Assembly: GCF_044324875.1 (NCBI RefSeq) | Contig: NZ_CP172185.1 | Direction: 5' to 3' (one strand) | Origin: Escherichia coli | Lineage (GTDB): Bacteria; Pseudomonadota; Gammaproteobacteria; Enterobacterales; Enterobacteriaceae | Length of the DNA: 64,000 nucleotides | Part shown: positions 28,930 to 29,587 of the stretch, piece after piece | Layout: each line of letters opens with the position of its first letter | Numbering within the stretch: position 1 is the first letter of the stretch | Made by a program: the position numbers and the translations under genes | Notes under the pieces: generated by a model | What the model saw: only the letters and a program-made list of their open reading frames with translations | Told to the model about the DNA's origin: nothing | The model's database searches: none

Positions 28930-28959
28930 AGCGGCGCGGAGTTAACCAGCCGCTTTTTT
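28930..28959 (+). terminator. Probable intrinsic terminator after metJ
   Basis: agcgg(28930-28934)...ccgct(28950-28954) stem followed by tttttt (28954-28959); loop is long, so moderate confidence. Confidence 0.5.
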
Positions 28960-28978
28960 CATACATGGACGTTTAACG

Positions 28979-29587
28979 ATGAAAATCAGGCTACTGATCC
29001 TCAGTCTGCTGGTTTCTGTGCCTGCATTTGCCTGGCAACCACAAACCGGCGACATCATCTTTCAGATCTCTCGCTCATCGCAAAGTAAAGCGATCCAACT
29101 GGCGACCCATTCCGATTACAGCCACACCGGTATGCTGGTGATACGCAACAAAAAGCCCTACGTTTTTGAAGCGGTCGGCCCGGTGAAATACACCCCGCTC
29201 AAGCAGTGGATTGCCCATGGTGAAAAGGGCAAATACGTTGTTCGCCGCGTTGAAGGCGGACTGAGTGTTGAACAACAGCAAAAGCTGGCGCAAACGGCAA
29301 AACGTTATCTCGGCAAACCGTACGATTTCAGCTTCTCGTGGAGCGACGATCGCCAGTACTGTTCGGAAGTGGTTTGGAAGGTTTATCAGAACGCGCTGGG
29401 AATGCGCGTGGGCAAACAGCAAAAGTTGAAAGAGTTCGACCTTAGTAACCCGCTGGTTCAGGCAAAGCTCAAAGAACGCTACGGCAAAAATATTCCGCTT
29501 GAGGAAACGGTGGTCTCACCACAAGCTGTTTTCGATGCGCCACAACTCACCACTGTCGCCAAAGAATGGCCGCTGTTTTCGTGGTAA
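28979..29587 (+). CDS. yiiX: Exported protein YiiX (permuted papain-like/lipid-binding hydrolase family as I recall)
   Basis: 202-aa ORF MKIRLLILSLLVSVPAFAWQPQTGDIIFQISRSSQSKAIQLATHSDYSHTGMLV...; signal peptide. Confidence 0.88.
   Translation: MKIRLLILSLLVSVPAFAWQPQTGDIIFQISRSSQSKAIQLATHSDYSHTGMLVIRNKKPYVFEAVGPVKYTPLKQWIAHGEKGKYVVRRVEGGLSVEQQQKLAQTAKRYLGKPYDFSFSWSDDRQYCSEVVWKVYQNALGMRVGKQQKLKEFDLSNPLVQAKLKERYGKNIPLEETVVSPQAVFDAPQLTTVAKEWPLFSW

Follow-up and report, generated by a model that had tools for sequence, protein, structure and literature searches.

What might explain why the same 12-nucleotide word, ATACATGGACGT, is found behind metJ and again behind rraA in one stretch of the Escherichia coli chromosome, each time directly 3' of a hairpin and T-run and a few nucleotides in front of a start codon? 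The word has exactly two copies in the window, by which we mean the whole 64-kb stretch of DNA that was analyzed, at 28961-28972 (site 1) and 38072-38083 (site 2), and there are still two if one mismatch is allowed. The longer strings that contain them, ttttttcATACATGGACGTttaacgATG at 28954-28981 and ttttttATACATGGACGTattcgtg at 38066-38090, are present as the initial annotation of the window had recorded them, and the start codon lies 6 nt beyond the 12-mer at site 1 and 4 nt beyond it at site 2. We consider it likely that both 12-mers are the SD/initiation region of the first gene after a leaky terminator-like hairpin and, at the same time, near-consensus sites for the RNA-binding translational regulator CsrA. 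On this reading the 12-mer is regulatory and of an ordinary kind, and no scar of a recombination event. The features around site 1 are as follows.

28602..28919, plus strand: metJ coding sequence, the gene 5' of site 1, after the RefSeq annotation of the orthologous K-12-type locus (L003); TAA stop at 28917-28919.
28924..28960, plus strand: metJ-distal hairpin with U-run, intrinsic-terminator-like and probably leaky, with a GGA (28938-28940) near its apex; RNA fold -22.2 kcal/mol, z = -3.8.
28961..28972, plus strand: site 1 12-mer ATACATGGACGT, the yiiX SD region and a CsrA-consensus site (10/12, ACA and GGA intact), from the window and cross-genus comparison.
28965..28976, plus strand: mini-ORF ATG GAC GTT TAA, Escherichia-specific and probably incidental; other genera have AAG (of AAGGA) here.
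28979..29587, plus strand: yiiX, encoding a permuted papain-like C92 amidase with a signal peptide (Pfam PF05708, E = 1.3e-48; annotated as yiiX).

Site 2 belongs to an islet of two genes inserted after rraA.

37543..38028, plus strand: rraA, the gene 5' of site 2, from annotation.
38045..38071, plus strand: islet-borne hairpin AAAAGGGGAA-TTAAC-TTCCCCTTTT with T-run, and a GGA (38051-38053) at the top of its 5' arm, from a terminator scan and fold.
38072..38085, plus strand: site 2 12-mer ATACATGGACGT, kept as a 14-mer ending in GTAT, the gene A SD region and a CsrA-consensus site, from cross-lineage comparison.
38088..38762, plus strand: islet gene A, 224 aa, GTG start, with three TM helices and a PsbP/DcrB-like domain, from start comparison and structure.
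38795..39511, plus strand: islet gene B, 238 aa, a paralogue of A (30% identity, E = 3e-35), from sequence comparison.
39519..39534, plus strand: hairpin 3' of gene B that resembles the K-12 rraA terminator (AAGGCGCCTTGCGGCGCCTCTGCGT versus AAGGCACCGCAAGGTGCCTTTTTTCTGCGT), as judged by eye rather than by formal alignment.

Identity over 12 nt is not in itself what has to be explained. The chance estimate of the initial annotation, which made such a match unlikely, misleads: there are 287 maximal exact direct repeats of at least 12 nt in the window, and 435 pairs of 12-mers versus the 122 expected under uniform composition, so that finding some 12-nt identity in 64 kb is unremarkable; for the particular word ATACATGGACGT the expected window count is 0.13. 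The unusual feature is the common position, after a hairpin and T-run and 4-6 nt 5' of a start codon. A rough, non-computed estimate puts that positional coincidence at about 1e-4 a priori in one window, and it becomes much weaker when post hoc selection across many windows is allowed for.

The GC-rich stem-loop directly followed by a U-run that is expected of an intrinsic terminator is predicted at both sites, each with T6, and the site 2 hairpin folds at -23.8 kcal/mol over the region tested. A simple terminator scan missed the metJ-distal hairpin because of an internal bulge, and in K-12 and E. albertii a REP/BIME pair lies inside it. E. albertii, Superficieibacter and three further lineages (L101, L102 and L105) retain the stem of the site 2 hairpin but vary in its loop; the hairpin is missing in K-12. 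An extension of the similarity upstream through the two hairpins was considered and rejected: the two share a TTAAC loop but have unlike arms, and this loop is confined to Escherichia in the site 1 hairpin and to E. coli in that of site 2. Neither within the hairpin nor between it and the start codon was a sigma-70-like promoter called at either site, and yiiX belongs to the MetJ iModulon, being co-expressed with the MetJ regulon, a combination that fits read-through. Read-through is the probable source of the yiiX transcript, and would supply that of the islet genes.

Is the 12-mer used as an SD region? At site 1 the GGA (28967-28969) is 9 nt 5' of the yiiX ATG, and the core AACAAGGA(C/T)GT, which contains a canonical AAGGA SD, is kept across genera, even in Leminorella, where a gene other than metJ lies upstream. 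Among the orthologues the GGA stands 7-12 nt 5' of the start, and T-run and SD are separated by a spacer whose length differs freely between genera (5-9 nt); the exact 12-mer and its placement right after the T-run arose only within Escherichia. At site 2 the GGA (38078-38080) is 7 nt 5' of GTG 38088, and that 7-nt distance is the same in all six lineages with site 2. About 24 nt of site 2 (CCCTTTTTTATACATGGACGTAT) are identical in E. coli and Superficieibacter, whose orthologous islet proteins are only 33-36% identical and in which the 14 nt after the rraA stop are scrambled.

This assignment depends on where gene A begins. The start of gene A is, on sequence comparison, GTG 38088, and not the ATG inside the motif from which the initial annotation had read MDV. 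PGAP and other gene callers use the 38088 position, which aligns with Met1 of paralogue B, and which is ATG in E. albertii, Superficieibacter, L101 and L102 and GTG in E. coli; L101 has AAG where the ATG of the motif stands. The embedded ATG might nevertheless be functional, either as the gene A start (MDVF...) or, at site 1, as the start of a three-codon leader ORF that drives translational coupling to yiiX. In E. coli, E. albertii and Superficieibacter it shares the gene A reading frame (MDVF/MDVY), and the mini-ORF ATG GAC GTT TAA, which exists at 28965-28976 as annotated, stops 2 nt 5' of the yiiX start in all Escherichia examined. However, the ATG is not conserved as a start (five genera have AAG or AGG there at site 1, and L101 has AAG at site 2), it has only the U-run and no SD upstream, and the GTG/ATG switch downstream, together with the paralogue B alignment, marks the real start; a role for the embedded ATG is thus very improbable.

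Both sites, as SD regions, also resemble the target of CsrA. The SELEX consensus of CsrA is RUACARGGAUGU, with ACA and GGA invariant (PMC4347634, PMC2896534), and the E. coli RNA 12-mer AUACAUGGACGU matches it at 10/12 positions with both cores intact. Compared with the SELEX ligand (Dubey et al. 2005, cited in PMC4347634 and PMC2896534), position 6 is U and not R and position 10 is C and not U. The pooled orthologues give AUAYAWGGAYGU, again 10/12, and the best orthologues reach 12/12 (L101 site 2, AUACAAGGAUGU) and 11/12 (Phytobacter site 1). The GGA core is kept in all 16 orthologous sequences. The "invariant" ACA is not universal here, being AUA in L102 and L105 and GCA in K. aerogenes. 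The non-consensus positions common to both sites, U6 and C10, are those that vary among orthologues, and their identity is therefore a small residual coincidence; otherwise the likeness of the two sites would arise from the shaping of each towards one protein-binding consensus and from their common place behind a T-run.

The window contains only 12 ACANGGA cores, six of which score at least 10/12, against a mean of 1.8 and a maximum of 5 in shuffles, an excess that speaks for specificity. Six such matches in 64 kb also mean, on the other hand, that the consensus is not very selective. Those six matches include site 1, site 2 and a third site in the cytR leader.

32373..32384, plus strand: AAACATGGATGT, in the cytR 5' UTR, the third CsrA-consensus match (10/12), from the consensus scan; inside CLIP-seq peak_402.

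Moreover, since any SD needs a GGA-like core at such a distance, and both sites overlap the SD/initiation region (GGA 9 nt from the yiiX start and 7 nt from the gene A start), RBS function by itself accounts for some of the consensus match and some of the conservation. A 4-bp stem with the GGA in a hexaloop can form in the 14-mer AUAC-AUGGAC-GUAU, and the GGA is in a loop of the minimum-energy fold in about half of the orthologues; these folds are weak, at -1 to -6.5 kcal/mol, and those of E. coli differ. In contrast to the SELEX ligand, the site hairpin has only marginal stability, and in E. coli the minimum-energy fold is predicted to be a different one. An extended stem that would bury the gene A start in the E. 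coli fold was discarded as a candidate, as the flanking sequences differ in the other lineages.

Published in vivo data bear on site 1. CLIP-seq of CsrA in K-12 gave a peak over the metJ-yiiX junction (peak_403, log2FC 2.11, padj 2.16e-16; Potts et al. 2017, PMC5694010), which is continuous from the metJ 3' end into yiiX, and peak_402 covers the cytR site (PMC5694010). Peak_403 has its summit at the nucleotide immediately 5' of the yiiX AUG, which is 6 nt beyond the 12-mer; no other GGA in the peak is closer than 83 nt. Potts et al. 2017 (PMC5694010) give the peak in a supplementary table only, and their paper contains no description of the site. Its continuity, together with the co-expression of yiiX with the MetJ regulon, argues for read-through from metJ into yiiX. 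K-12 has no islet, and the cross-linking evidence is thus for site 1 only; CsrA binding at site 2 is predicted from the likeness of its sequence. In a csrA mutant, yiiX was class NS for RNA level, translation and stability in the one growth condition used (PMC5694010), so that its expression shows no significant CsrA-dependent change in these data and a regulatory effect of CsrA on yiiX is not demonstrated; nor is yiiX among the targets in the Edwards, Kulkarni or Sowa datasets (PMC5694010).

In the light of these data, could the likeness be a plain coincidence of two ordinary RBSs near terminators, each with an A(A/U)GGA SD, in which CsrA has no part? Exact 12-nt repeats are routine in this window (n=287), the T-run and the GGA are generic, the post-T-run placement and an A-to-T change at site 1 are Escherichia-specific with a spacer that varies from 5 to 9 nt, the published data show no significant dependence of yiiX expression on CsrA, and the likeness was picked post hoc by a reader scanning many windows. 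We nevertheless regard coincidence as rather unlikely. The ACA and YGU flanks are the CsrA consensus flanks and are kept at both sites across genera, with matches of up to 12/12 and 11/12, the CLIP summit sits on site 1, and the conservation of the site 2 14-mer goes far beyond what an SD by itself would require.

A different origin of the likeness would be short-patch gene conversion or template switching, by which site 2 TTTTTTATACATGGACGT overwrote an ancestral site 1 TTTTTTTAATGGTGTAACAAGGACGT in the Escherichia ancestor. The islet is 9 kb away in the same orientation, the T-run and GGACGT could have served as microhomology anchors, and such an event is compatible with both sequences being CsrA sites. 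All of the Escherichia changes at site 1 relative to Citrobacter (loss of ~7 nt, AACA to TACA, and AAGGA to ATGGA) reach identity with site 2, while the flanking bases of site 1 (ACGTTTAaCG ATG) remain outgroup-like. The two sites of E. albertii have 19 exact bases in common, CTTTTTTATACATGGACGT, and the site 2 form is the older, being common to Superficieibacter; K-12 site 1 is without the intervening C. RecA-dependent conversion usually needs far longer homology, however, than the T-run and GGACGT anchors offer. The identity also ends abruptly on both sides with differing hairpin arms, the spacer length varies in all genera, and at positions 1-2 the change from UA to AU also brings site 1 nearer to the CsrA consensus, so that selection explains these two changes as well as conversion does. 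Conversion is an improbable account of the likeness, and convergence of two SD regions on one CsrA consensus remains the reading that we prefer.

The initial annotation had also suggested that the motif marks a recombination or insertion target, or that it is a remnant of capture of the islet start from a yiiX-like upstream region. Not only is the motif near the left end of the islet, the islet is also strain-variable, being found in 660 of 5,425 complete E. coli genomes (about 12%). However, genomes that have no islet part from the window sequence at the stop codon of rraA (38026), which is 45 nt 5' of the motif, and the K-12 rraA-zapB spacer contains a different terminator and no copy of the motif; the motif is therefore not at the junction and is absent from the empty site. 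This comparison, which the annotation had proposed, identifies the motif as islet DNA and not as K-12 rraA flank. The right end of the islet has no second copy of the 12-mer. In six lineages, E. coli and at least five others, rraA is the fixed location of the site 2 cassette, although one of them has pfkA instead of zapB as the other flank, and the exact site 1 form, which is confined to Escherichia, is the younger of the two. The islet has no associated integrase or transposase, save for an unrelated IS200-type gene in L101. Insertion and capture are therefore the least credible explanations of those considered, and of the options in the annotation it is the shared regulatory element that stands, with an SD after a hairpin and T-run and a CsrA consensus at both sites, and a CLIP-seq summit at site 1.

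Several other identities for the motif were considered and set aside. Membership in a dispersed repeat family is not supported: searched for TTTT(N)ATACATGGACGT, 100,044 species-representative genomes yielded ~90 matches, nearly all in unrelated taxa, and the only enterobacterial matches to the T-run and 12-mer were at the metJ-yiiX and rraA-islet loci. A marine gammaproteobacterial cluster among the matches, at first a candidate terminator-adjacent element, is an unrelated ~53-nt tandem intergenic repeat in which the same 17-20 nt happen to occur, and its apparent terminator adjacency results from the TTTT required in the search pattern. Like REP/BIME elements, the motif is a short sequence that recurs in intergenic DNA beside terminators, but unlike them it has no palindromic REP structure and forms no multi-copy family. 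An Rfam search of 28400-40300 (E <= 1) returned no match at either site, and only the ClpQY promoter, the L31 leader and a sub-threshold STnc420. Reading of the reverse strand (...VHV-stop) reveals no ORF, with a stop 9 codons upstream at site 1. Scored as a MetJ operator (tandem AGACGTCT met boxes), the sequence reaches 8/16 for its best pair of boxes, as do 61% of shuffles. The islet proteins have no family match in Pfam, NCBIfam or PADLOC; a distant member of the islet-protein family is not linked to rraA and is without the motif.

The closest known counterpart of the arrangement at both sites is cei-T1-cel of ColE7, in which an intercistronic terminator stem-loop, T1, is followed by a CsrA site, ACAAGGAGU, over the SD of the colicin lysis gene cel, which CsrA represses, with a second site in the T1 loop (PMC2896534). 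The cel site corresponds to ACA(A/U)GGA(C/U)GU at the metJ-yiiX and rraA-islet sites, the downstream gene would likewise be reached by read-through, and it codes for an envelope protein that begins with a signal or TM segment. A second GGA lies upstream at both of our sites, at 28938-28940 (29 nt 5') and at 38051-38053 (27 nt 5'), in or at the top of a stable hairpin. Unlike the upstream GGA of cel, which is in the single-stranded T1 loop, that of site 2 is at the stem top, inside the stable stem, and that of site 1 is near the apex and is missing from 3/8 orthologous hairpins. The cel system is on a plasmid and its CsrA sites have been validated by gel shift and mutation (PMC2896534), whereas the yiiX and islet loci are chromosomal and are likened to it by sequence. 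In the mechanism that we propose, transcripts that pass the hairpin would carry the downstream gene, yiiX after metJ and gene A after rraA. CsrA would bind over the SD, possibly bridging to the second GGA in the upstream hairpin, and bound CsrA would compete with the ribosome, so that translation of yiiX and of the islet genes would be tied to CsrA activity. Repression is the outcome of CsrA binding that this competition suggests.

A conspicuous sequence coincidence can thus be explained without mobile DNA, and its impact is modest. A published but undescribed CLIP-seq peak is pinned to a specific 12-nt site at the yiiX RBS, and the start of the first islet gene is corrected to GTG 38088. The two loci add chromosomal examples to the layout of terminator and CsrA site first shown for the ColE7 lysis gene, and CsrA translational control is predicted for a strain-variable two-gene module downstream of rraA that encodes membrane-anchored PsbP-fold proteins. 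More speculatively, and with little confidence, the hairpin, U-run and CsrA site over the SD could be viewed as a reusable control cassette of the Enterobacteriaceae, with the yiiX leader rewritten by a 19-nt ectopic conversion. If so, the cassette would serve to couple accessory envelope genes to a housekeeping gene at its 3' end, with a low level of read-through set by the terminator and translation gated by CsrA, and the rewriting of the Escherichia yiiX leader to the islet version would represent the copying of a regulatory site between loci 9 kb apart.

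What might explain why the same 12-mer follows two unrelated terminators in the window, once between metJ and yiiX (site 1, 28961-28972) and once between rraA and gene A of a two-gene islet (site 2, 38072-38083)? Gene order across the window is metB, metJ, yiiX, rpmE, priA, cytR, ftsN, hslVU, menA, rraA, the two-gene islet, zapB and glpFK. The two-copy motif described in the initial annotation is real, both strings being recovered by sequence look-up, and a search of the 64 kb finds exactly two copies of the 12-mer, also when one mismatch is tolerated. The accompanying argument that such a match is unlikely by chance does not hold in that form: with 287 maximal exact direct repeats of at least 12 nt in the window, a shared 12-mer at some place along the 64 kb is to be expected. 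The longest repeats, an adjacent exact 20- and 27-nt pair (CGGACAGTCCCCTCGCCCCT ... GGGGAGAGGGTTAGGGTGAGGGGAAAA) at 727-775 and 54849-54897, are probably copies of a dispersed intergenic repeat. The feature needing explanation is the position common to both copies, each directly 3' of a strong hairpin (-22.2 kcal/mol at site 1, -23.8 kcal/mol at site 2) with its T-run and a few bases 5' of a start codon. The best explanation is an ordinary one, that both copies are CsrA-type sites, close to consensus, that cover the Shine-Dalgarno sequences of genes behind leaky terminators. The relevant features are as follows.

28954-28981: site 1 string ttttttcATACATGGACGTttaacgATG, from sequence look-up
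38066-38090: site 2 string ttttttATACATGGACGTattcgtg, from sequence look-up
32373-32384: AAACATGGATGT in the cytR 5' UTR, matching the CsrA consensus at 10/12 positions, within published CLIP-seq peak_402
38029-39548: two-gene islet between rraA and zapB, strain-variable, also in E. albertii, Superficieibacter and other Enterobacteriaceae
L020 8093-8400; L028, L045, L060, L005, L037, L038: comparison loci with a marine tandem repeat

CsrA ligands selected by SELEX have the consensus RUACARGGAUGU, in which ACA and GGA do not vary and GGA lies preferably in a hairpin loop (PMC4347634, PMC2896534), and the pooled orthologues of both sites give AUAYAWGGAYGU. The E. coli 12-mer scores 10/12 with both cores, site 1 of Phytobacter 11/12, and L101, an enterobacterial contig carrying the islet, 12/12. 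Only 12 ACANGGA cores occur in the window, and six score at least 10/12, where shuffled sequences gave 1.8 on average and 5 at most; these matches include site 1, site 2 and AAACATGGATGT in the cytR leader, where the peak_402 summit is nearer the cytR Shine-Dalgarno sequence, ~36 nt 3' of the match. Further 10/12 matches, neither obviously at a real start codon, are AGACAGGGATGG in the fieF-cpxP spacer and AGACAAGGAGGT downstream of fpr (51951-51962 and 44693-44704, respectively). The two non-consensus positions of the E. coli 12-mer, U6 and C10, are those that vary among orthologues (A/U and C/U), which leaves about two bases, together with the T-run spacing, as coincidence between the sites. 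The small predicted hairpin AUAC-AUGGAC-GUAU is weak and fits the CsrA model. That two ribosome-binding sites are alike by pure coincidence is unlikely and would leave the consensus flanks and the CLIP summit at site 1 unexplained.

Site 1 already lies within a published CLIP-seq peak, where it was never described as a CsrA site. Peak_403, at K-12 4127842-4128117 (log2FC 2.11, padj 2.16e-16; Potts et al. 2017, Supplementary Data 1, PMC5694010), spans the metJ 3' end and the spacer and extends into yiiX. Its read maximum, 4127895, is the base directly 5' of the yiiX AUG, 6 nt beyond the 12-mer, and of the seven GGA triplets that the peak covers, the motif's own lies at 11 nt from the summit and the second closest at 83 nt. 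Expression of yiiX, which encodes a permuted papain-like C92 enzyme with a signal peptide, shows no significant CsrA-dependent change (class NS; Potts et al. 2017, PMC5694010), so that the data support CsrA binding at site 1, as cross-linking in vivo, but not a regulatory outcome. The gene belongs to the MetJ iModulon (PMC11701608), a promoter scan of both leaders called no promoter-like site from hairpin to start codon, and the CLIP peak is continuous; these observations point to expression from transcripts that read through the hairpin.

The site 1 motif belongs to the Escherichia core genome, being carried by K-12, E. whittamii, Escherichia sp. E1V33 and E. albertii alike. A REP/BIME pair within the metJ terminator hairpin, present in the K-12-type locus (L003 432-575) and E. 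albertii (L107 700-870) and absent in the window strain, sets the hairpin arms ~124-190 nt apart without disturbing the T-run or the 12-mer. The core AACAAGGA(C/T)GT, 7-12 nt 5' of the yiiX start, recurs in Citrobacter (two species), Klebsiella aerogenes, Intestinirhabdus, Phytobacter and Leminorella, the last retaining it although the neighbouring gene is not metJ; here too the core is the Shine-Dalgarno element (AAGGA). Compared with the other genera, Escherichia has ~7 nt fewer between T-run and core, TACA for AACA, and ATGGA for AAGGA, so the exact 12-mer, its place directly 3' of the T-run and the mini-ORF of three codons are derived in Escherichia. Short-patch conversion of site 1 by the site 2 sequence, in an ancestor of Escherichia, would neatly cover these three changes and the 19-nt identity between the E. 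albertii sites, but its anchors would be very short and its outcome is indistinguishable from selection towards the CsrA consensus; we consider it quite improbable, and it is compatible with the CsrA explanation. In strain FCI56 (L004 1829-2580) an IS1 at the very start of yiiX, its end adjoining ...TGAAAAACAGG, parts the gene from its ribosome-binding region.

The islet is found in 660 of 5,425 complete E. coli genomes. In islet-free genomes similarity to the window ends at the rraA stop codon, and in K-12 the spacer between rraA and zapB contains another terminator (AAAGGCACCGCAAGGTGCCTTTTTTC) and lacks the motif. Hairpin and 12-mer at site 2 therefore belong to the islet, and the refuting case named in the initial annotation, a motif that is part of the K-12 rraA flank, does not apply. 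The K-12 rraA terminator resembles the hairpin 3' of islet gene B (39519-39534), suggesting that K-12-type genomes lost the islet through a deletion that reached from the rraA stop as far as the gene B end. Over 39519-39545 the islet hairpin is similar to the K-12 terminator (L001 3333-3365) but without a T-run.

The rraA-linked cassette also occurs in E. albertii (L107/L108), Superficieibacter (L052) and three further enterobacterial contigs (L101, L102, L105), in each lineage as rraA stop, ~15 variable nt, G-rich/C-rich hairpin, T-run, motif, 2 nt and start codon. In Superficieibacter the far flank is pfkA instead of zapB, and thus the module travels with rraA. Other Enterobacteriaceae show more remodelling between rraA and zapB: one lineage (L103 1296-2500) has an inserted lipoprotein (Lipoprotein_9) gene, a B-type gene alone and a decayed motif copy (tttttttatacaaaactgtat), and in L101 an IS200-type Y1 transposase adjoins the islet (4261-4572). 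Orthologous islet proteins of E. coli and Superficieibacter are only 33-36% identical, and the paralogues A and B only 25-30%, placing the duplication before the split of these lineages; despite this divergence ~24 nt at site 2 (CCCTTTTTTATACATGGACGTAT) are identical between the two, a block under strong constraint. Motif variants among lineages are ATACATGGACGTAT, ATACAAGGATGTAT, ATATATGGATGTAT and ATATATGGACGTAG.

The ATG embedded in the motif had been taken as the start of gene A. The start is instead 4 nt 3' of the 12-mer, GTG in E. coli and ATG in other lineages, at a position that aligns with Met1 of paralogue B and is also chosen by gene callers; L101 has AAG in place of the embedded ATG, and the site 2 motif is therefore 5' UTR. 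Its GGA is constantly 7 nt 5' of the start codon in all lineages compared, which identifies it as the Shine-Dalgarno region. With AAG in L101 and a mini-ORF derived in Escherichia, a functional embedded ATG or mini-ORF is very improbable. Of the three readings first proposed, the shared regulatory element survives as a CsrA-type Shine-Dalgarno site; an insertion target or captured remnant is extremely improbable, being contradicted by the motif-less K-12 spacer, the breakpoint at the rraA stop, the cassette kept at rraA across lineages and the derived form of site 1. Readings as a MetJ operator, a known RNA family or a dispersed repeat were tested and rejected. Rfam matches above gathering score are the ClpQY (hslVU) promoter element and the L31 ribosomal protein leader upstream of rpmE (34531-34588 and 29867-29919), both expected. 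A ~53-nt tandem intergenic repeat (GGGTTTATACATGGACGTATTTATCCTGCG...CAGGAGCAG), probably a REP-like family, in the marine Gammaproteobacteria Thalassotalea, Shewanella, Marinobacterium and Algicola contains 17-20 nt identical to E. coli site 2, most likely by coincidence.

The islet proteins match no family in Pfam, NCBIfam or PADLOC, and an exhaustive profile search of 1.8 billion proteins found only 32 cluster representatives. In a confident AlphaFold model (pLDDT 89.4) a PsbP/Mog1/DcrB-like domain comes after three transmembrane helices, and the paralogues have two conserved cysteines. PDB matches are PsbP (E = 3.5e-6) and, more weakly, Tsi3, EagT6, DcrB and MTC28; the modelled likeness to PsbP/DcrB-type proteins is at fold level only.

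The proposed layout is the one demonstrated by experiment for the ColE7 lysis gene, where the T1 terminator in the cei-cel spacer precedes a CsrA site over the cel Shine-Dalgarno sequence (PMC2896534). There, one CsrA site is in the T1 loop and the second, ACAAGGAGU, is over the cel Shine-Dalgarno sequence, and an AC-to-TT change relieved repression (PMC2896534). What is new here is site 2, as a candidate CsrA site, and the conservation of the cassette across genera. Motif position, conservation, the gene A start codon, the consensus match and, for site 1, cross-linking in vivo are established, and from these CsrA binding at site 2, repression and read-through are inferred. At both loci the hairpin and U-run would restrict read-through from metJ or rraA, and on the read-through transcripts CsrA would occupy the site over the Shine-Dalgarno sequence and stop ribosome binding, possibly bridging to a GGA in the upstream hairpin (28938-28940; 38051-38053).
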